From: Escherichia coli
GTDB lineage: Bacteria; Pseudomonadota; Gammaproteobacteria; Enterobacterales; Enterobacteriaceae
Direction: 5' to 3' (one strand)
DNA: 64,000 bases
Assembly (NCBI RefSeq): GCF_024502345.1
Contig: NZ_JALDNN010000001.1
Shown here piece after piece: positions 28,079 through 37,739 of this stretch. The notes under the pieces are model-generated. The model ran no database searches and was not told where the DNA came from. It saw only the letters and a list, made by a program, of their open reading frames with translations. How positions within the stretch are numbered: the stretch's first letter is position 1; every line of letters starts with the position of its first letter. A program made the translations under genes and the position numbers.

Positions 28079-29770
28079 ATGAAAACGCTGCTGATTATTG
28101 ACGCTAATCTCGGTCAGGCACGCGCCTATATGGCGAAGACCCTGCTGGGCGCGGCGGCGCGAAAAGCAAAACTGGAAATCATCGACAATCCGAACGACGC
28201 AGAAATGGCGATTGTTCTCGGTGATTCCATCCCGAACGACAGCGCGCTGAACGGTAAAAATATCTGGCTGGGCGATATTTCCCGGGCAGTTGCGCACCCT
28301 GAGCTGTTCCTGAGTGAAGCCAAAGGCCATGCGAAACCTTACACTGCGCCGGTCGCTGCGACAGCACCGGTTGCCGCCAGCGGTCCGAAACGCGTAGTTG
28401 CGGTGACTGCTTGCCCGACTGGCGTAGCACACACCTTTATGGCGGCTGAAGCCATTGAAACCGAAGCGAAAAAACGTGGCTGGTGGGTGAAAGTTGAAAC
28501 CCGTGGTTCTGTTGGTGCGGGTAATGCAATCACTCCCGAAGAAGTAGCCGCAGCGGATCTGGTGATTGTGGCGGCAGATATCGAAGTGGATCTGGCGAAA
28601 TTTGCTGGTAAACCGATGTATCGTACCTCTACCGGTCTGGCGCTGAAGAAAACCGCGCAGGAACTGGATAAAGCGGTTGCTGAAGCAACGCCGTATGAAC
28701 CGGCGGGCAAAGCTCAAACGGCGACCTCTGAAGGTAAGAAAGAGAGTGCAGGCGCATACCGTCACTTGCTGACGGGCGTCTCTTACATGCTGCCGATGGT
28801 CGTTGCAGGTGGTCTGTGTATCGCGCTTTCTTTTGCTTTTGGTATCGAAGCGTTTAAAGAGCCGGGTACGTTGGCAGCGGCGCTGATGCAGATTGGTGGT
28901 GGTTCAGCCTTTGCGCTGATGGTGCCGGTACTGGCAGGTTACATTGCCTTCTCCATTGCCGATCGTCCGGGCCTCACGCCGGGTCTGATTGGCGGTATGC
29001 TGGCGGTCAGCACCGGTTCTGGCTTTATTGGCGGTATTATTGCGGGCTTCCTGGCTGGTTACATTGCGAAGTTAATTAGTACGCAACTGAAACTGCCACA
29101 GAGTATGGAGGCGCTGAAACCAATCCTGATCATTCCGCTAATTTCCAGTCTGGTGGTCGGTCTGGCGATGATCTACCTGATCGGTAAACCAGTTGCTGGC
29201 ATTCTCGAAGGGTTGACTCACTGGCTGCAGACCATGGGGACTGCGAATGCGGTTCTGCTGGGGGCGATCCTCGGTGGCATGATGTGTACTGACATGGGCG
29301 GTCCGGTAAATAAAGCAGCGTACGCATTCGGTGTGGGTCTGCTGAGTACTCAAACCTATGGCCCGATGGCGGCGATTATGGCGGCAGGTATGGTGCCACC
29401 GCTGGCAATGGGCCTGGCAACAATGGTGGCGCGTCGCAAATTCGACAAAGCGCAGCAGGAAGGTGGCAAAGCCGCTCTGGTACTGGGACTGTGCTTTATT
29501 TCGGAAGGTGCAATTCCGTTTGCTGCTCGTGATCCGATGCGTGTGCTGCCGTGCTGTATCGTGGGTGGGGCGCTGACTGGCGCAATCTCAATGGCGATTG
29601 GTGCGAAACTGATGGCACCGCACGGTGGTCTGTTTGTTCTGCTGATCCCTGGCGCTATTACGCCGGTACTGGGTTACCTGGTAGCAATTATTGCCGGTAC
29701 GCTGGTGGCGGGTTTGGCCTATGCCTTCCTGAAACGTCCGGAAGTGGACGCAGTAGCGAAAGCCGCGTAA
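28079..29770 (+). CDS. fruA: fructose PTS EIIB'BC component FruA
   Basis: 563-aa product recognised as FruA. Confidence 0.95.
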   Translation: MKTLLIIDANLGQARAYMAKTLLGAAARKAKLEIIDNPNDAEMAIVLGDSIPNDSALNGKNIWLGDISRAVAHPELFLSEAKGHAKPYTAPVAATAPVAASGPKRVVAVTACPTGVAHTFMAAEAIETEAKKRGWWVKVETRGSVGAGNAITPEEVAAADLVIVAADIEVDLAKFAGKPMYRTSTGLALKKTAQELDKAVAEATPYEPAGKAQTATSEGKKESAGAYRHLLTGVSYMLPMVVAGGLCIALSFAFGIEAFKEPGTLAAALMQIGGGSAFALMVPVLAGYIAFSIADRPGLTPGLIGGMLAVSTGSGFIGGIIAGFLAGYIAKLISTQLKLPQSMEALKPILIIPLISSLVVGLAMIYLIGKPVAGILEGLTHWLQTMGTANAVLLGAILGGMMCTDMGGPVNKAAYAFGVGLLSTQTYGPMAAIMAAGMVPPLAMGLATMVARRKFDKAQQEGGKAALVLGLCFISEGAIPFAARDPMRVLPCCIVGGALTGAISMAIGAKLMAPHGGLFVLLIPGAITPVLGYLVAIIAGTLVAGLAYAFLKRPEVDAVAKAA

Positions 29771-29925
29771 TAAAAGGTGTGTTACAGGGCAGAAATTTAC
29801 TGCCCTGTATCATTGGATGAGCGCAAAGAGAATGACCGGTTTGTGAATGTAATTTTATGAATTTAAATGGTTTTATCTTTCAGTAGAAACCTGAAACGTT
29901 CATCAAATACTAAGGTTATTTCCTC

Positions 29926-29954
29926 AAGGGCAGATTCTTTTCTGCCCTTTTTTA
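29926..29954 (+). terminator. rho-independent terminator of fruBKA
   Basis: AAGGGCAGA-TTCTT-TCTGCCCTT hairpin followed by TTTTT. Confidence 0.8.
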
Positions 29955-30193
29955 GTGTTCATGTTCTGTGCATCCCGTCACAAATTCCTCGCTTTTGTAA
30001 TTCAGGCATTTAATCGCATTTTGTGAGCCTGCTCAAATCTGCCCATTTTGCCTCTCTGGCGGTAATTTACTTTACGTAAAACATGCATACTATGAGCACA
30101 TGTTTAAATATGAACACATGTTTAAACCGTCTTTGCAGTATCTATATTCTTGTGGATTGACAGGGTTGGTAATTTTTTACCAGAGGACGTGCT

Positions 30194-31135
30194 ATGCGCG
30201 AAAAGGATTATGTCGTAATTATAGGTTCGGCGAATATTGATGTCGCCGGATATTCACATGAATCATTAAATTATGCGGATTCAAATCCAGGTAAAATAAA
30301 ATTTACGCCTGGTGGGGTAGGGCGAAATATTGCACAAAACCTGGCGTTGCTGGGTAACAAAGCCTGGCTACTGAGCGCAGTAGGCAGTGATTTTTATGGT
30401 CAATCGCTGCTAACGCAAACCAATCAATCTGGCGTTTATGTCGATAAATGCCTGATTGTGCCGGGAGAAAATACGTCGAGCTATTTATCATTACTCAATA
30501 ATACCGGTGAAATGCTGGTTGCTATAAATGACATGAATATTAGCAACGCTATTACAGCTGAATATCTCGCACAGCACCGTGAATTTATTCAGAGGGCAAA
30601 GGTCATTGTCGCGGACTGTAATATCAGTGAAGAGGCACTGGCATGGATTCTGGATAATGCTGCCAACGTACCCGTATTTGTCGATCCGGTTTCAGCGTGG
30701 AAATGTGTCAAAGTGCGCGACCGTCTAAATCAGATCCACACTCTCAAGCCAAACCGCCTTGAAGCGGAAACCCTGAGTGGGATTGCGCTGTCAGGGCGTG
30801 AAGATGTGGCAAAAGTTGCTGCCTGGTTCCATCAACATGGCCTGAACCGACTGGTATTGAGCATGGGCGGCGATGGCGTTTATTACAGTGATATCAGCGG
30901 TGAAAGTGGCTGGTCTGCCCCGATCAAAACCAATGTTATTAATGTTACCGGAGCGGGCGATGCCATGATGGCGGGACTTGCTTCGTGTTGGGTAGACGGA
31001 ATGCCGTTTGCCGAATCTGTTCGTTTCGCACAGGGATGTTCGTCAATGGCGCTCTCCTGTGAATACACCAATAACCCCGATTTATCGATTGCCAACGTTA
31101 TATCGTTAGTGGAGAACGCAGAATGTCTGAATTAA
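30194..31135 (+). CDS. psuK: pseudouridine kinase PsuK (YeiC), PfkB family
   Basis: 313-aa product recognised as YeiC/PsuK. Confidence 0.9.
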   Translation: MREKDYVVIIGSANIDVAGYSHESLNYADSNPGKIKFTPGGVGRNIAQNLALLGNKAWLLSAVGSDFYGQSLLTQTNQSGVYVDKCLIVPGENTSSYLSLLNNTGEMLVAINDMNISNAITAEYLAQHREFIQRAKVIVADCNISEEALAWILDNAANVPVFVDPVSAWKCVKVRDRLNQIHTLKPNRLEAETLSGIALSGREDVAKVAAWFHQHGLNRLVLSMGGDGVYYSDISGESGWSAPIKTNVINVTGAGDAMMAGLASCWVDGMPFAESVRFAQGCSSMALSCEYTNNPDLSIANVISLVENAECLN

Positions 31136-32061
31136 AAATTTCCCCTGAATTATTACAAATTTCCCCGGAAGTGCAGGACGCTTTAAAAAACAAAAAACCG
31201 GTTGTGGCGCTGGAATCGACCATTATTTCTCACGGGATGCCGTTCCCACAAAATGCCCAGACCGCAATTGAAGTAGAAGAAACTATTCGTAAACAGGGCG
31301 CAGTACCTGCCACTATCGCAATTATTGGCGGCGTGATGAAAGTGGGTTTAAGCAAAGAAGAAATTGAATTACTGGGTCGTGAAGGGCATAACGTGACCAA
31401 AGTTAGTCGTCGCGATTTACCTTTTGTTGTTGCCGCCGGAAAAAATGGCGCAACCACTGTGGCTTCAACGATGATTATTGCGGCGCTTGCCGGAATTAAA
31501 GTATTTGCCACCGGGGGAATTGGTGGTGTGCATCGCGGGGCGGAACATACCTTCGATATTTCTGCCGATTTGCAAGAACTGGCAAATACTAATGTCACCG
31601 TTGTTTGTGCCGGGGCGAAATCTATTCTCGATTTAGGATTAACCACTGAGTATTTAGAAACCTTCGGTGTGCCGTTAATTGGCTATCAGACTAAAGCGCT
31701 GCCTGCGTTTTTCTGCCGTACCAGCTCGTTTGACGTCAGCATTCGTCTCGACAGCGCCAGTGAAATTGCCCGTGCAATGGCGGTGAAATGGCAAAGCGGG
31801 CTGAACGGTGGCCTCGTGGTAGCGAACCCGATCCCGGAACAGTTTGCGATGCCGGAGGAATCTATCAATGCAGCCATAGATCAAGCCGTCGCCGAAGCCG
31901 AAGAGCAGGGCGTTATTGGTAAAGAAAGTACACCGTTCCTGCTGGCGCGCGTTGCTGAGCTGACCGGCGGTGACAGCCTGAAATCCAATATCCAGCTGGT
32001 GTTCAACAACGCCATTCTGGCGAGTGAAATTGCCAAAGAATACCAGCATCTCGCGGGTTAA
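31123..32061 (+). CDS. psuG: pseudouridine-5'-phosphate glycosidase PsuG (YeiN)
   Basis: 312-aa product recognised as YeiN/PsuG; overlaps the psuK 3' end. Confidence 0.9.
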   Translation: MSELKISPELLQISPEVQDALKNKKPVVALESTIISHGMPFPQNAQTAIEVEETIRKQGAVPATIAIIGGVMKVGLSKEEIELLGREGHNVTKVSRRDLPFVVAAGKNGATTVASTMIIAALAGIKVFATGGIGGVHRGAEHTFDISADLQELANTNVTVVCAGAKSILDLGLTTEYLETFGVPLIGYQTKALPAFFCRTSSFDVSIRLDSASEIARAMAVKWQSGLNGGLVVANPIPEQFAMPEESINAAIDQAVAEAEEQGVIGKESTPFLLARVAELTGGDSLKSNIQLVFNNAILASEIAKEYQHLAG

Positions 32062-32088
32062 TTTCTGACGGGCAGAAAGCCGTCGCCC
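32062..32088 (+). promoter_or_regulatory. conserved leader motif upstream of psuT (alternative hairpins)
   Basis: TTTCTGACGGGCAGAAAGCCGTCGCCC; near-identical copy upstream of nupX; can fold as TTTCTG/CAGAAA, GACGG/CCGTC or GGGC/GCCC stems. Confidence 0.4.
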
Positions 32089-32154
32089 GTACTCATCAAG
32101 CATACCAAAACCTGGCGCTGACGCCGGGTTTACTGGCATGAAGGGAAAATCATT

Positions 32155-33405
32155 ATGGATATAATGAGAAGTGTTGTGGGGATGGTGGTGTTACTGGCAA
32201 TAGCATTTCTGTTGTCAGTGAATAAAAAGAGCATCAGTTTGCGCACGGTTGGAGCCGCACTGCTGCTGCAAATCGCTATTGGTGGCATCATGCTCTACTT
32301 CCCACCGGGAAAGTGGGCAGTAGAACAGGCGGCATTAGGCGTTCATAAAGTGATGTCTTACAGTGATGCCGGTAGCGCCTTCATTTTTGGTTCGCTGGTT
32401 GGGCCGAAAATGGATGTCCTGTTTGACGGTGCGGGTTTTATCTTCGCCTTTCGCGTACTTCCGGCGATTATTTTCGTTACTGCGCTCATCAGTCTGCTGT
32501 ACTACATTGGCGTGATGGGGCTGCTGATTCGCATCCTTGGCAGCATTTTCCAGAAAGCTCTTAACATCAGCAAAATCGAATCTTTTGTCGCAGTCACAAC
32601 TATTTTCCTCGGGCAAAATGAGATCCCGGCGATCGTTAAACCGTTTATCGATCGCATGAATCGCAACGAGTTGTTTACCGCAATTTGTAGCGGGATGGCG
32701 TCCATTGCTGGTTCGATGATGATTGGTTATGCTGGAATGGGCGTACCAATTGACTACCTGTTAGCGGCATCGCTGATGGCGATCCCAGGTGGTATTTTGT
32801 TTGCACGTATTCTTAGCCCGGCCACCGAGCCTTCGCAGGTCACATTTGAAAATCTGTCGTTCAGCGAAACGCCGCCAAAAAGCTTTATCGAAGCGGCGGC
32901 GAGCGGTGCGATGACCGGGCTGAAAATCGCCGCTGGTGTAGCGACGGTGGTAATGGCGTTTGTCGCAATTATTGCGCTGATCAACGGCATTATCGGCGGA
33001 ATTGGTGGCTGGTTTGGTTTCGCCAATGCCTCTCTGGAAAGTATTTTTGGCTATGTGCTGGCACCGCTGGCGTGGATCATGGGTGTGGACTGGAGTGATG
33101 CCAATCTTGCGGGTAGCCTGATTGGGCAGAAACTGGCGATTAACGAATTCGTCGCTTACCTGAGTTTCTCCCCATACCTGCAAACGGGCGGCACGCTGGA
33201 AGTGAAAACCATTGCGATTATCTCCTTTGCGCTTTGTGGTTTTGCTAACTTTGGTTCTATCGGTGTTGTCGTTGGCGCATTTTCGGCTATTTCGCCAAAA
33301 CGTGCTCCAGAAATCGCCCAGCTTGGTTTACGGGCGCTGGCAGCAGCAACGCTTTCCAACCTGATGAGTGCGACTATTGCCGGGTTCTTTATTGGTCTGG
33401 CGTAA
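32155..33405 (+). CDS. psuT: CNT-family nucleoside transporter PsuT (YeiM)
   Basis: 416-aa multi-TM product recognised as YeiM/PsuT; paralog of NupX. Confidence 0.9.
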   Translation: MDIMRSVVGMVVLLAIAFLLSVNKKSISLRTVGAALLLQIAIGGIMLYFPPGKWAVEQAALGVHKVMSYSDAGSAFIFGSLVGPKMDVLFDGAGFIFAFRVLPAIIFVTALISLLYYIGVMGLLIRILGSIFQKALNISKIESFVAVTTIFLGQNEIPAIVKPFIDRMNRNELFTAICSGMASIAGSMMIGYAGMGVPIDYLLAASLMAIPGGILFARILSPATEPSQVTFENLSFSETPPKSFIEAAASGAMTGLKIAAGVATVVMAFVAIIALINGIIGGIGGWFGFANASLESIFGYVLAPLAWIMGVDWSDANLAGSLIGQKLAINEFVAYLSFSPYLQTGGTLEVKTIAIISFALCGFANFGSIGVVVGAFSAISPKRAPEIAQLGLRALAAATLSNLMSATIAGFFIGLA

Positions 33406-33415
33406 TGCTCGATTT

Positions 33416-33457
33416 GTAGACCGGATAAAACGTATTAAGCGTTGCATCCGGCAATCG
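33416..33457. repeat. REP-like palindromic element downstream of psuT
   Basis: GTAGACCGGATAAAACGTATTAAGCGTTGCATCCGGCAATCG (CCGGAT...ATCCGG arms). Confidence 0.5.
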
Positions 33458-33475
33458 CGCTATTGCAAATAATTT

Positions 33476-34135
33476 TTACTGCATCATCCCGGAGAATTTA
33501 TTCTCCGGGTCCATCTCCAGCGCCAGTCCTGACAACTGCTTTCTGTTTTTAATGAGATACCCTTTCTTGCTTTTAGTTAATAAACCGTCGTGAATGAATT
33601 GCGCGAGAACATATAAAAGATGTCGATAAGAAACGCCTAAATACTCTGCCGCTTGCGTATGCTTTTCGTGATAAAGATCACCTTCCTGCGAGAGTAATAT
33701 AAAAGCTGCCAGGCGATTAACTAACGGAAATGATTGATTCTGAGTTAAAGAAACAATATTACGATAATTTTTATGACTTAAGGTGACGCAGAGTTTTCGT
33801 AAAAATAGCGTGTCGTTTAATAACAGCGGGCGGTAATGTTTCATAGAGAGCGCAAGGCACCAACACTCTTCAATAGCCTGCACCGCACGCGGTTCATGGT
33901 CTTTGTCGATTAACTCAATCTCACCAATAAAACAGGGGGCGGCAAAGAAATCGATCAGCGACACGCGACCATTAGCAAGCGTGGCGTAAAGCCTGGCGCG
34001 GCCTCGCGTCAGATAAAACAGCCAGGACGGCTGTTGCCCTTCCTGCACAATGTAGTCACGCGCTAAAAAATGAAACAGCCGCGTATCGGCTGAAACATCC
34101 GTTAAAAAGCAATCCTTAAACGCGGATTCACTCAT
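33476..34135 (-). CDS. yeiL: Crp/Fnr-family transcriptional regulator YeiL
   Basis: Cyclic-nucleotide-binding-like domain plus C-terminal HTH; start taken at MSESAFKD (219 aa), the ORF extends to 34174. Confidence 0.8.
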
Positions 34136-34303
34136 CAATTGCAGCTTAAGATCATTATTGTGGATTTCTTTCACGATGTTTATCCGCTGTGAGATTTCTC
34201 ATATTTAGCATACGTACGCTGTTGTTAAGATTCAATCATCGGCCCGGTCGAATTTTCTTTGCTGTAGAAAAAATAACGCAACTGGAAACAGAGGAAATAA
34301 ACA

Positions 34304-35245
34304 ATGGAAAAGAGAAAAATTATTCTGGATTGTGATCCGGGTCATGATGATGCTATTGCAATGATGATGGCAGCGAAACATCCGGCGATTGATTTATTAG
34401 GCATCACTATTGTAGCGGGTAATCAGACGCTTGATAAAACATTAATTAATGGCCTGAATGTTTGCCAGAAACTGGAGATTAATGTTCCGGTTTATGCGGG
34501 GATGCCGCAACCCATTATGCGTCAACAAATCGTTGCCGATAATATTCACGGTGAAACCGGACTGGATGGCCCGGTATTCGAGCCGCTGACCCGCCAGGCA
34601 GAAAGTACCCACGCGGTGAAATACATCATTGATACCCTGATGGCAAGCGATGGCGATATCACTCTGGTGCCGGTTGGTCCGCTTTCAAATATCGCGGTGG
34701 CAATGCGTATGCAACCCGCGATCCTGCCCAAAATCCGTGAAATTGTGCTAATGGGCGGCGCTTACGGTACAGGCAACTTCACGCCATCTGCCGAGTTCAA
34801 CATCTTTGCTGACCCGGAAGCCGCACGCGTGGTGTTCACCTCCGGCGTTCCATTAGTGATGATGGGCCTCGATCTTACCAACCAGACCGTTTGCACCCCG
34901 GACGTAATTGCTCGGATGGAAAGGGCAGGCGGCCCTGCCGGAGAGCTGTTCAGCGACATCATGAACTTCACTCTCAAAACGCAGTTCGAAAACTACGGCC
35001 TGGCTGGCGGCCCGGTGCACGACGCCACCTGCATCGGTTATCTGATTAACCCTGATGGCATTAAAACCCAGGAGATGTACGTCGAAGTGGACGTCAACAG
35101 TGGCCCTTGCTATGGGCGTACCGTCTGCGACGAGCTGGGCGTTCTTGGCAAGCCCGCTAATACCAAAGTCGGCATCACTATTGATACCGACTGGTTCTGG
35201 GGCTTAGTCGAAGAGTGCGTGCGCGGCTACATCAAAACCCATTAA
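34304..35245 (+). CDS. rihB: pyrimidine-specific ribonucleoside hydrolase RihB
   Basis: 313-aa product with N-terminal DCDPGHDD inosine-uridine hydrolase motif. Confidence 0.9.
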
Positions 35246-35292
35246 GTGTTGATAACAAGCCGGGTCAGTATCGCAAGATCCAAGCCCGGCTA

Positions 35293-35319
35293 TTTCTGAT
35301 GGGCAGAAAGCCGTCGCCC
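35293..35319 (+). promoter_or_regulatory. conserved leader motif upstream of nupX (paralogous to the psuT leader)
   Basis: TTTCTGATGGGCAGAAAGCCGTCGCCC, 26/27 identical to the psuT leader; the single difference keeps pairing as a G-U wobble. Confidence 0.4.
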
Positions 35320-35344
35320 AATATGACATGAAGAGATAATAACT

Positions 35345-36595
35345 ATGGATGTCATGAGAAGTGTTCTGGGAATGGTGGTATTGCTGACGATTGCGTTTTT
35401 ACTGTCAGTAAACAAGAAGAAGATCAGCCTGCGTACCGTTGGCGCGGCGTTAGTGTTACAGGTCGTGATTGGCGGGATTATGCTTTGGTTACCGCCAGGG
35501 TGTTGGGTCGCTGAAAAAGTCGCTTTTGGCGTGCATAAAGTGATGGCGTACAGCGACGCGGGTAGCGCATTTATCTTCGGTTCGCTGGTCGGGCCGAAAA
35601 TGGACACGCTGTTTGATGGCGCAGGATTTATCTTTGGTTTCAGAGTGTTACCGGCAATTATCTTCGTCACCGCGCTGGTGAGTATTCTCTATTACATCGG
35701 TGTGATGGGGATCTTAATTCGCATTCTCGGCGGTATATTCCAGAAAGCATTAAATATCAGCAAGATCGAGTCATTCGTCGCGGTCACTACCATTTTCCTC
35801 GGGCAAAACGAAATTCCGGCAATCGTCAAACCCTTTATCGATCGTCTGAATCGCAATGAATTATTTACAGCGATTTGTAGTGGCATGGCCTCGATTGCTG
35901 GTTCGACAATGATTGGTTACGCCGCACTGGGCGTACCTGTGGAATATTTGCTGGCGGCATCGTTAATGGCGATCCCAGGCGGAATCTTGTTTGCCCGCCT
36001 GTTAAGCCCGGCTACGGAATCTTCGCAGGTTTCTTTTAATAACCTCTCTTTCACCGAAACACCGCCAAAAAGCATTATTGAAGCCGCCGCGACAGGGGCA
36101 ATGACCGGGCTGAAAATCGCCGCAGGTGTGGCGACAGTAGTGATGGCATTTGTCGCCATCATTGCGTTAATTAACGGTATTATCGGCGGCGTTGGCGGCT
36201 GGTTTGGTTTTGAACATGCCTCGCTGGAGTCCATTTTAGGTTATCTGCTGGCCCCACTGGCGTGGGTAATGGGTGTTGACTGGAGTGATGCGAATCTTGC
36301 CGGGAGTTTGATTGGACAGAAACTGGCAATAAATGAATTTGTCGCTTATCTCAATTTCTCACCCTATCTGCAAACGGCTGGCACTCTGGATGCTAAAACC
36401 GTGGCGATTATTTCCTTCGCGTTGTGCGGTTTCGCTAACTTTGGTTCTATCGGGGTGGTGGTGGGGGCGTTTTCTGCGGTTGCACCACACCGTGCGCCGG
36501 AAATCGCCCAGCTTGGTTTACGCGCGCTGGCGGCGGCGACACTTTCTAACCTGATGAGTGCCACCATTGCCGGGTTCTTTATTGGTTTAGCGTAG
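35345..36595 (+). CDS. nupX: CNT-family nucleoside permease NupX
   Basis: 416-aa multi-TM product recognised as NupX. Confidence 0.9.
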   Translation: MDVMRSVLGMVVLLTIAFLLSVNKKKISLRTVGAALVLQVVIGGIMLWLPPGCWVAEKVAFGVHKVMAYSDAGSAFIFGSLVGPKMDTLFDGAGFIFGFRVLPAIIFVTALVSILYYIGVMGILIRILGGIFQKALNISKIESFVAVTTIFLGQNEIPAIVKPFIDRLNRNELFTAICSGMASIAGSTMIGYAALGVPVEYLLAASLMAIPGGILFARLLSPATESSQVSFNNLSFTETPPKSIIEAAATGAMTGLKIAAGVATVVMAFVAIIALINGIIGGVGGWFGFEHASLESILGYLLAPLAWVMGVDWSDANLAGSLIGQKLAINEFVAYLNFSPYLQTAGTLDAKTVAIISFALCGFANFGSIGVVVGAFSAVAPHRAPEIAQLGLRALAAATLSNLMSATIAGFFIGLA

Positions 36596-36607
36596 TGTGC
36601 GATTTAT

Positions 36608-36646
36608 GAGCCGGATAAGATGCGGTCAAGCGTCGAATCCGGCAAC
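36608..36646. repeat. REP-like palindromic element downstream of nupX
   Basis: GAGCCGGATAAGATGCGGTCAAGCGTCGAATCCGGCAAC. Confidence 0.5.
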
Positions 36647-36650
36647 ATTG

Positions 36651-37739
36651 TTACACCATTGGCACTAATGAAAGCGCGTTATCGGCAGACAGGGTAGGGT
36701 TGTTTAAGCTGCCGCTGGCGCGTGAAATTGCCGCGCAGGCTACCGCAAAACGGGCGCTGTCGCGGAAACTGTATCCTTCAAGAAAGCTATATACCAGGCC
36801 CGCCATAAAACCATCGTCAGCACCAAAACTGTCTACTGTCGTATGCGCTGGCGCGGTCAGCAAAAATTGTTCTCCATCCTTTTCGCTGCAATAAACTGAC
36901 TCATCGGGCAAATAAACAAACAGTTGCTGAACACCTTGCTGATGCAACGCATTCACTGCAGCATTACGGTCAGCATCGCTGGTGATCGCCTGTCCCCATA
37001 AAATTTCCAGCTCCGGTAAAGTGGGTTTCAGGGTGTGAATATGCGCCAGCCAGTGTTTGATTTTGCCCGCTTTGAATTCTGAAACGGTATCGACAAACAC
37101 CGGGATCTCATCAGCGAGGGTAAAGACCCATTCCAGCGCCTCGGCTGTCAGGTTGCAATCAGCCAGTACCACGCCCGCATGACGAAGTAAATCGCGCGAC
37201 CCGTTCAGTAGTTGCGGTGTCAACTGTTCCAGCAGATGGGTATCGTTAATCGCCAGCACGGTTTGATCGTCTCGATTGGCAATTGCCAGATACGTCGATG
37301 TGCTTTGACCATGCAAACGAACGCAGCCGGAGACATTCACGCCGGCGCGGCGCGTTTCTTCCAGGAGCATTTCGCCATAAAAGTCATCGCCAATCACTGA
37401 AAGCAAATGGACGTCACGGCCTAACAGCGCCAGATTGTGGGCGATATTGCGTCCAACGCCGCCTGCCGAGCAATGAATTGTACCGGGATGAGAAGCCGCT
37501 TGCGGGTAATGGATATCCGCCATCCCGCGAATATCCATATTGATTGTCCCCACCACTACGCAGTATTCCTGCTCGGTGAGAATGTAACCTTTGCCTTTAA
37601 TCCGGCCTTTGCGCATTAAATCCATAATATGCGCCGCAACGCGCGAACGACTGATTTGCAGCATGTTCGCAATTTCGTTCTGCTGAATCAGCGGGTTACG
37701 CCGTAAAATTGCAAGGATCTCCTTTTCCCGGTTATTCAT
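36651..37739 (-). CDS. yeiI: PfkB-family kinase with N-terminal HTH domain, YeiI
   Basis: 362-aa product; N-terminal winged HTH plus ribokinase-like domain paralogous to PsuK. Confidence 0.85.
   Translation of the reverse strand: MNNREKEILAILRRNPLIQQNEIANMLQISRSRVAAHIMDLMRKGRIKGKGYILTEQEYCVVVGTINMDIRGMADIHYPQAASHPGTIHCSAGGVGRNIAHNLALLGRDVHLLSVIGDDFYGEMLLEETRRAGVNVSGCVRLHGQSTSTYLAIANRDDQTVLAINDTHLLEQLTPQLLNGSRDLLRHAGVVLADCNLTAEALEWVFTLADEIPVFVDTVSEFKAGKIKHWLAHIHTLKPTLPELEILWGQAITSDADRNAAVNALHQQGVQQLFVYLPDESVYCSEKDGEQFLLTAPAHTTVDSFGADDGFMAGLVYSFLEGYSFRDSARFAVACAAISRASGSLNNPTLSADNALSLVPMV

Follow-up and report, generated by a model that had tools for sequence, protein, structure and literature searches.

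A conserved, covarying hairpin in the leaders of the paralogous transporter genes psuT and nupX: a candidate cis-regulatory RNA of Enterobacteriaceae

The psuT and nupX spacers and their shared motif

We examined a 64,000-nt stretch of Escherichia coli DNA (contig NZ_JALDNN010000001.1; hereafter the window), which is K-12-like in sequence and runs the opposite way to the RefSeq record, and focused on the spacers upstream of two paralogous transporter genes, psuT and nupX. Both leaders carry a 23-nt hairpin, here called HP1, which recurs in about ten enterobacterial genera and is very probably a selected RNA hairpin of the sense strand. Gene identities were taken from the RefSeq annotation of E. 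coli genomes, including K-12 MG1655, in which neither the psuG-psuT nor the rihB-nupX spacer of K-12 has an annotated feature. The genes, and a 27-nt motif that the two spacers share, lie as follows:

30194-31135, plus strand: psuK
31123-32061, plus strand: psuG (stop codon 32059-32061)
32062-32088, plus strand: psuT copy of the motif, TTTCTGACGGGCAGAAAGCCGTCGCCC, in the psuG-psuT spacer, starting one base past the psuG stop
32155-33405, plus strand: psuT
33476-34174, minus strand: yeiL
34304-35245, plus strand: rihB (stop codon 35243-35245)
35293-35319, plus strand: nupX copy of the motif, TTTCTGATGGGCAGAAAGCCGTCGCCC, in the rihB-nupX spacer
35345-36595, plus strand: nupX

The original prediction, made from the letters of the window, was that these two spacers share a structured leader built on the 27-nt motif. 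The motif itself is present at both places as claimed: the copies differ by a single C/T change (26/27 identical), no other match with up to 3 mismatches occurs in the window, and 100 shuffles gave none. In a pairwise alignment of the spacers, homology starts one base 5' of the motif and, after a gap where the psuT leader has a 41-nt insertion, picks up again at the Shine-Dalgarno/start region. The coding sequences of psuT and nupX are 78% identical overall and 51% identical at third codon positions. Because a 26/27 match has a probability of ~3e-7 at 51% per-site identity (calculated from the third positions), the likeness of the two motifs is not neutral survival since the duplication. In psuT, the motif takes in, from its 5' end, a 6-nt flank (TTTCTG), the 5' arm and loop of HP1, and the first 4 nt of the HP1 3' arm.

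HP1, the hairpin conserved in both leader types

Orthologous leaders were gathered independently of the motif. A protein-anchored scan with one genome per species yielded the psuT loci of an Escherichia strain, E. albertii and three Citrobacter species and the nupX-type locus of Superficieibacter, along with psuT homologs of Serratia and Hafnia (73% identical) and many distant CNT transporters. A protein search, followed through to the encoding contigs, added Buttiauxella, Klebsiella michiganensis, K. spallanzanii, Kluyvera, Enterobacter hormaechei, another Enterobacter, Leclercia, Entomohabitans and a metagenome-assembled contig (L091); several of these genomes carry both paralogs. Each leader was defined as the 170 nt upstream of the transporter start and typed by gene order, as psuT-type if it follows psuG and nupX-type if it follows rihB. 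This gave 23 leaders with 18 distinct sequences. We also scanned metagenomes using the start region TCATTATGGAYGTNATGMG as an anchor; among the matches listed, two of the 80 loci fetched were real leaders (L114 and L132) and the rest were mostly unrelated contigs. These two variants bring the set to 20 distinct sequences from about ten genera.

HP1 was found in 23/23 of the independently gathered leaders, and so the prediction of a structured element common to both transporters, conserved beyond the E. coli pair, held up. It consists of a 6-bp G+C-rich stem (ACGGGC/GCCCGT) and an 11-nt loop, and its two copies in the window are:

32068-32090, plus strand: HP1, psuT copy (5' arm ACGGGC, 32068-32073; loop AGAAAGCCGTC, 32074-32084; 3' arm GCCCGT, 32085-32090)
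35299-35321, plus strand: HP1, nupX copy (5' arm (A)TGGGC, 35299-35304; loop AGAAAGCCGTC, 35305-35315; 3' arm GCCCA(A), 35316-35321)

The psuT copy starts 6 nt past the psuG stop codon, scores 41.2 bits against a covariance model (E 9e-9) and folds in isolation with a minimum free energy of -11.1 kcal/mol. The K-12-type nupX copy has five pairs (35300-35304 with 35316-35320), its outermost A.A being unpaired, and scores 36.7 bits (E 1.5e-7; isolated fold -8.3 kcal/mol). The stem varies among the leaders, with two further variants coming from the metagenome contigs L114 and L132:

ACGGGC/GCCCGT: E. coli psuT; Superficieibacter and Enterobacter nupX
ATGGGC/GCCCAT: Escherichia L001 nupX; Buttiauxella
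GCGGGC/GCCCGC: K. michiganensis psuT; K. spallanzanii and Entomohabitans nupX
ACAGGC/GCCTGT: Enterobacter and Leclercia psuT
GTGGGC/GCCCGT: E. albertii
ATGGGC/GCCCGT: Kluyvera
ACGGGT/GCCCGT: L091 nupX

Over the 20 distinct sequences, 96.7% of the stem cells form standard pairs (96-97% across the 18- and 20-sequence counts); sliding the 3' partners by 1-3 columns as a control lowers this to 33-53%. Three of the six pairs show compensatory changes on both sides (AU/GC, CG/UA and GC/AU), and none of 500 shuffles reached the covariation score of HP1. One of these changes is the C/T difference between the E. coli motifs. This had been proposed to preserve pairing as a G-U wobble, but the stem meant there is not conserved; in the conserved stem the change is one half of a true compensation in which C32069:G32089 of psuT has T35300:A35320 as its counterpart in nupX (C:G versus U:A). 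The partner base, A35320, lies one base beyond the 27-nt motif.

HP1 was also the stem recovered by folding. RNAalifold, run on whole leaders, predicts it separately in the psuT-type and nupX-type sets and gives no conserved competing stem, and the isolated hairpin is the minimum free energy fold in each species (-8 to -19.5 kcal/mol). The original prediction had envisaged several mutually exclusive stems, in the manner of an attenuator or riboswitch. Of those, the sole one that is conserved and covaries is GGGC/GCCC, in the extended form that is HP1. In the 18 distinct sequences, TTTCTG/CAGAAA is paired in 59% of cells, is Escherichia-specific and does not covary, and GACGG/CCGTC, likewise Escherichia-specific, is paired in 71%, with zero double changes and a score not above shuffles. 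When the E. coli psuT spacer is folded as a single sequence, GACGG/CCGUC does form, with the end of psuG contributing bases; this fold is absent elsewhere.

The direction of the imperfect pairs indicates the molecule on which selection acts. Every non-Watson-Crick stem variant, namely two in E. albertii and those of Kluyvera, L091, E. coli IAI1 and E. coli Nissle, is G-U or U-G on the plus strand, with no A.C; read on the opposite strand, the same variants would be A.C mismatches. In IAI1, A32068>G turns an A-U into a G-U pair, and in Nissle A32068>G and C32069>T together give a G-U and a U-G pair. Other single-nucleotide differences in the spacers of five diverse E. coli strains lie in the linker described below (most of them) or past a second hairpin, HP2, and never in the stems. 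Since the wobble variants are all G-U on the sense strand, HP1 is best understood as an mRNA hairpin. The arms also covary between copies in one genome, as in E. coli (psuT C:G, nupX U:A) and Enterobacter (psuT A:U, nupX G:C). In Enterobacter the two leaders differ strongly, ACAGGC-AGTTTGCGGTC-GCCTGT versus ACGGGC-GATCCCGGGTT-GCCCGT, and keep the stem and the loop length in both. The preservation of pairing by compensatory changes on the transcribed strand is what would be expected of a conserved cis-acting mRNA hairpin, and in our judgment makes selection on the RNA very probable.

Constraint extends beyond pairing. The loop has 11 nt in 20/20 variants, although its positions 3-8 vary freely and the flanks have many indels. 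Seven alignment columns are invariant (G14, G15, G25, T26, G28, C29 and C30), corresponding to the central GG/CC, the loop-closing G on the 3' side and a GT (GU) at loop positions 9-10. Within the loop, positions 2:10 always form G-U or A-U, and 3:9 and 4:8 pair in about half of the sequences only. HP1 lies 23-66 nt from the start codon, with 23 nt to the ATG in the K-12 nupX leader.

The hairpin is rare within genomes and confined in range. In the window, only these two copies stand out to the covariance model, the next best match scoring 14 bits, and across 5,424 E. coli genomes a motif-containing query hits a median of 2 places per genome. Among 83 loci that included distant CNT homologs (Burkholderia, Vibrio, Pasteurellaceae, Halomonas and others), the model matched enterobacterial psuT/nupX leaders only, save for one weak match inside a coding sequence of a high-G+C genome, which is probably due to chance. 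The psuG-psuT spacers of Serratia and Hafnia have a different, longer hairpin in place of HP1. In these loci (L006-L009, ~2385-2440; Serratia, Hafnia and 'Klebsiella sp.'), the hairpin is ~50 nt long with a conserved base, CCTGAAAGG...CCTTTCAGG, and has AAATAAAAA just before it; it resembles an intrinsic terminator on the minus strand, though the flanking genes are plus-strand.

Other leader features and the likeness of the E. coli copies

Around HP1, the leaders in the window contain the following:

32091-32107, plus strand: linker ACTCATCAAGCATACCA, C/A-rich, G-poor and single-stranded, with semi-conserved ATCA (32095-32098) and ATACC (32102-32106) boxes
32108-32131, plus strand: HP2, AAACCTGGCG-CTGA-CGCCGGGTTT, a 10-bp hairpin between an A-tract and a run of only 3-4 U
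32140-32157, plus strand: psuT ribosome-binding region (GAAGGG, 32140-32145; ATG, 32155-32157)
35258-35291, plus strand: HP0, AGCCGGGT...GCCCGGCT, a hairpin after the rihB stop and directly 5' of the nupX motif
35330-35347, plus strand: nupX ribosome-binding region (GAAGAG, 35330-35335; ATG, 35345-35347)

Leaders of the psuT type, and that of K. spallanzanii nupX, have a common layout: HP1 at 6-10 nt past the upstream stop (that of psuG), a C/A-rich linker that is unpaired in the RNAalifold consensus structure, HP2, and a purine-rich ribosome-binding site. HP2 occurs in all of these, with 7-10 bp; its stability in six species is -10.8 to -15.2 kcal/mol, and it may terminate transcription weakly between psuG and psuT. 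It is lacking from the nupX leader of the window and from most other nupX leaders, apparently lost through a deletion between two CCTGGC repeats. HP1 is retained in the leaders that lost HP2. Accordingly, the RNAalifold consensus holds HP1 only for the nupX type, and for the psuT type HP1, an independent second hairpin and a weak, non-covarying hairpin at the start codon. This last is an A/U hairpin, CAUUAU-GGAU-AUAAUG (32150-32166), that could enclose the psuT start codon; its pairs never covary, and as its 3' arm is coding sequence, its conservation may stem from the protein.

The purine-rich core of the ribosome-binding site is kept in all leaders. A shared leader end, CATGAAG...ATGGAT, had also been predicted. 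It is present in both E. coli leaders, where it amounts to the purine-rich ribosome-binding site and conserved N-terminal codons, whereas other genera keep the purine-rich core and ATGGA only. At the position of HP0, each genus has its own non-homologous hairpin, which would suit a generic 3' barrier or terminator of rihB.

The close likeness of the two E. coli motifs is a local matter. The E. coli nupX motif matches that of E. coli psuT at 26/27 positions, and the nupX motifs of Buttiauxella, Kluyvera and Enterobacter at 22/27, 19/27 and 14/27, respectively. Its loop and 5' flank are identical to those of E. coli psuT (11/11 and 6/6) and match nupX orthologs at no more than 9/11 and 3/6. Thus the E. 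coli nupX leader combines a loop and TTTCTG flank of the Escherichia/Citrobacter psuT type with a stem (U:A) and downstream sequence of the nupX type; the TTTCTG flank is common to Escherichia only. As E. coli nupX resembles E. coli psuT more than any nupX ortholog, the simplest reading is local gene conversion, and the pattern suggests that in the Escherichia lineage a short stretch of the psuT leader replaced the corresponding part of the nupX leader. The boundaries of the 27-nt motif seem to reflect this event, so that 26/27 would overstate the conservation; in the comparison across genera, only about a dozen motif positions are invariant or almost so.

All complete E. coli genomes with a match (5,414/5,414) have the short, K-12-type rihB-nupX spacer (35316-35344 in the window), which is without about 12 nt, including a ATCAGACC box, and without the outermost HP1 pair. 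The longer, ancestral spacer was found only in the divergent E. coli-labelled strain of locus L001 (5655-5701).

Two further observations concern the surroundings. First, the yeiL-rihB-nupX block (33476-36595) does not lie between psuT and yeiI in E. albertii or Citrobacter, precedes psuK in Enterobacter and occurs by itself in K. spallanzanii and Buttiauxella; because its location differs among Enterobacteriaceae genera, we consider it a movable three-gene module. Second, the convergent psuT-yeiL (33419-33483) and nupX-yeiI (36609-36654) spacers gave weak Rfam matches to naRNA4, which is derived from repetitive extragenic palindromic (REP) sequences; these are probably REP and unrelated to the motif.

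Proposed role, alternatives and comparison with known systems

We propose that HP1 would act in cis on the polycistronic psuK-psuG-psuT and rihB-nupX transcripts, as a fixed structural boundary that marks off the transporter cistron at its 5' edge. Such a processing or decay barrier would let the membrane-transporter segment be expressed at a level other than that of the upstream cytosolic enzyme genes, and in psuT-type leaders HP2 may add weak termination. HP1 does not seem to switch between alternative stems. Because it persists without HP2 and at 23-66 nt from the start codon, its role appears independent of HP2 and of exact ribosome-binding-site spacing; this independence, and the lack of an alternative fold, are why we favor a boundary element. 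The original prediction had listed an RNase processing site among its options, and a processing or stability role of the motif is possible. We hold the stability/processing-boundary mechanism tentatively, at a probability of about 0.38.

Several points weigh against it. First, a generic decay barrier needs no constant 11-nt loop, invariant loop GU, invariant GG/CC or G28; a constant loop and invariant bases would be better explained by sequence-specific recognition. Second, HP0 already follows rihB in nupX-type spacers and could itself be the 3' barrier. Third, the independent compensatory events are few (about 3-5), the paralogs can exchange sequence, and the shuffle control for HP1 covariation takes no account of phylogeny. 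Fourth, published maps have no signal at HP1: the supplements of an E. coli 3'-end map (Term-seq, bicyclomycin; PMC7815308) have no end in either spacer, an Hfq RIL-seq data set from nitrogen starvation (PMC10954441) lists none of these genes, and an Hfq CLASH data set (PMC7213987) has no entry in either leader.

These data sets do contain entries elsewhere in the cluster. Bicyclomycin-sensitive sites lie antisense to nupX and to yeiL (PMC7815308), and indicate that, at 33406-34300 and in the nupX region, the cluster has Rho-terminated read-through or antisense transcription. CLASH recovered CpxQ-psuT, CpxQ-nupX and CyaR-nupX chimeras, all inside coding sequence (PMC7213987), the CpxQ-psuT chimera falling in the 5' coding region, at codons about 6-22 (32155-32230). 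These chimeras suggest that small RNAs control the psuT and nupX mRNAs in a way that does not depend on the leader hairpin. As for the transporters, NupX shows weak uptake of both uridine and cytidine, and uptake of gemcitabine, xanthosine, uridine and cytidine by PsuT was not detected, its name resting on operon context (PMC11241209). Our search of the literature on psuT, nupX, yeiL and rihB found nothing on the leaders. The psu and nupX genes are probably little expressed under laboratory conditions.

The alternative that survives best is that HP1 is an operator, through which a trans-acting RNA-binding protein or a loop-kissing small RNA co-regulates both transporters post-transcriptionally. 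It would account for the seven invariant columns and the 11-nt loop of all 20 variants, that is, for constraint beyond pairing, and for the maintenance of the element in both paralogs since a duplication old enough to leave third-position identity at 51%; the variable position relative to the start codon would also suit a recruitment site. However, no factor presents itself, the only gene that co-occurs with both contexts being the transporter; the Hfq CLASH and RIL-seq tables have no leader interaction; two copies per genome leave no wider regulon; and in some species the loop can zip up (Enterobacter nupX has 12 continuous pairs and a 3-nt loop), so that a single-stranded recognition loop is not universal. 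We regard an operator as a serious rival, though an unlikely one. A more specific form is unlikely: that HP1 is the recognition hairpin of a novel post-transcriptional regulator (a protein or a small ligand-responsive fold) coupling the expression of PsuT and NupX, both of the CNT family, to the supply of pseudouridine or pyrimidine nucleosides. If true, this would make HP1 a new class of cis-regulatory RNA, a very small one that is restricted to Enterobacteriaceae.

It is very improbable that HP1 has no function and is an incidental hairpin in a duplication remnant whose two copies gene conversion has kept similar. In favor of this, the E. coli copies have probably undergone conversion, about 12 nt and the outermost pair are missing from the nupX leader of mainstream E. 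coli, and the genes are poorly expressed, judging by their absence from published maps. But conversion fails to explain conservation between genera or the divergent copies of Enterobacter that keep the stem, three pairs have double compensatory changes, the stem differences within E. coli keep pairing, and the spacer sequence on either side is free to diverge.

An attenuator or riboswitch-like switch, possibly nucleoside-sensing, that controls termination or translation of the transporter, as the original prediction proposed, is very improbable. E. coli does allow alternative stems, one of which is used in the single-sequence fold of its psuT spacer; psuT-type leaders have the terminator-like HP2 downstream; and a hairpin with an A-rich tail loosely recalls very small riboswitches. 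Against this, the alternative stems (59% and 71% paired) show no excess covariation, and most nupX leaders have HP1 without HP2. A terminator scan (at least 5 T in the 8 nt after a hairpin) found none at HP1 or HP2, and HP1 is followed directly by ACTCATCA or AATATGAC, not a U-run. In six species, folds cut before the 3' arm of HP2 gave no common partner of its 5' arm, hence no conserved antiterminator, and in 19/19 leaders the best complementary run between loop and downstream sequence was no better than in shuffled tails. A search of 29500-37500 against Rfam 15, ranked by E-value, gave isrJ as the only overlapping match (18.9 bits against a gathering score of 37; E 7.5). With HP1 alone in the nupX-type consensus, and thus no multi-helix or pseudoknot aptamer, a single 6-bp hairpin offers little ligand-binding architecture.

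Finally, ACGGGC-N11-GCCCGT as a DNA operator for a dimeric factor (e.g. YeiL or a LysR-type protein, T-N11-A-like) at an internal transporter promoter has equally little probability: the interrupted palindrome is perfect, yeiL (CRP/FNR family) adjoins rihB-nupX in many genomes and the N11 spacing recalls LysR boxes, but the arms covary within single genomes (E. coli psuT C:G, nupX T:A; Enterobacter psuT A:T, nupX G:C), unlike what we infer for a single DNA-binding protein, the imperfect pairs are G-T on the plus strand only, a sigma-70-like promoter scan of the plus strand found none downstream of HP1, where K-12 nupX leaves 23 nt to the ATG, and K. michiganensis psuKGT has HP1 with no yeiL in the locus.

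Other known classes were considered and set aside. An Hfq-dependent small RNA derived from a 3' untranslated region (HP1-linker-HP2) was rejected for its U-tail of 3-4 nt and for having no leader entry in the two Hfq data sets, and an upstream open reading frame, ATGAAGGGAAAATCATTATGGATATAA, because neither its frame nor its presence is kept in other genera. Membership of REP sequences or bacterial interspersed mosaic elements (BIME) was rejected on copy number (a median of 2 places per E. coli genome, and two copies in the window by the covariance model). The core of the RfaH ops element is GGCGGTAG, on the non-template strand of a long leader; the HP1 loop and 3' arm read GCGGTCGCC in most genera and GCCGTCGCC in E. 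coli, a partial resemblance that we judged a coincidence. The psu and nupX genes are not known to be RfaH targets.

Kept in both paralogs since an old duplication, HP1 offers a concrete handle on the regulation of pseudouridine catabolism (psuKGT) and of rihB-nupX, and from it one would expect separate control of the transporter cistrons and the enzyme genes that precede them. It also carries two cautions: an identity as striking as 26/27 between two sites of one genome is best put down to local gene conversion, and the conserved feature is smaller than the motif and differs from the stems visible in a single genome.

Among known systems, REP/BIME elements share with HP1 a G+C-rich palindrome in E. 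coli intergenic spacers, but HP1 has two copies per genome, always before psuT or nupX, and no similarity to the REP consensus families. A minimal riboswitch of the preQ1-I type likewise has a short stem, a loop of ~11 nt and an A/C-rich tail before a transporter gene for a nucleoside-like compound; in HP1, however, a loop-tail pseudoknot is unsupported, there is no Rfam match and the conserved nucleotides differ. Intrinsic terminators and attenuators also have a G+C-rich leader stem, and HP2, with its A-tract and 3-4 U, has the look of a weak terminator, whereas HP1 is followed by ACUCAUCA or AACGAG with no U-run and has no conserved antiterminator. Protein-bound mRNA hairpin operators include lambda boxB, bound by N, the RAT element of BglG/SacY and the ThrRS operator. 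These resemble HP1 in being short leader hairpins with constrained loop nucleotides and a covarying stem, but none matches its 11-nt loop in size and sequence, and the gene neighborhood suggests no binding protein; moreover, RAT and boxB work with a terminator, which most HP1-bearing nupX leaders lack.

The boundary role that we favor brings HP1 closest to the intercistronic stem-loops that set differential mRNA stability or expression, such as the malE-malF REP hairpins and the hairpins of the pap and puf operons. Those stem-loops are generic or repetitive and not conserved in sequence; HP1 has two copies per genome, is tied to the transporter through duplication and has a constant loop and invariant bases. 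Like them, it is a stable hairpin without a U-tract between co-directional genes of one operon, and it separates genes for a soluble enzyme and a membrane transporter, whose needed amounts probably differ. Overall, we consider HP1 a new, small and well-supported candidate for a cis-regulatory RNA hairpin, of a general kind that is already familiar.

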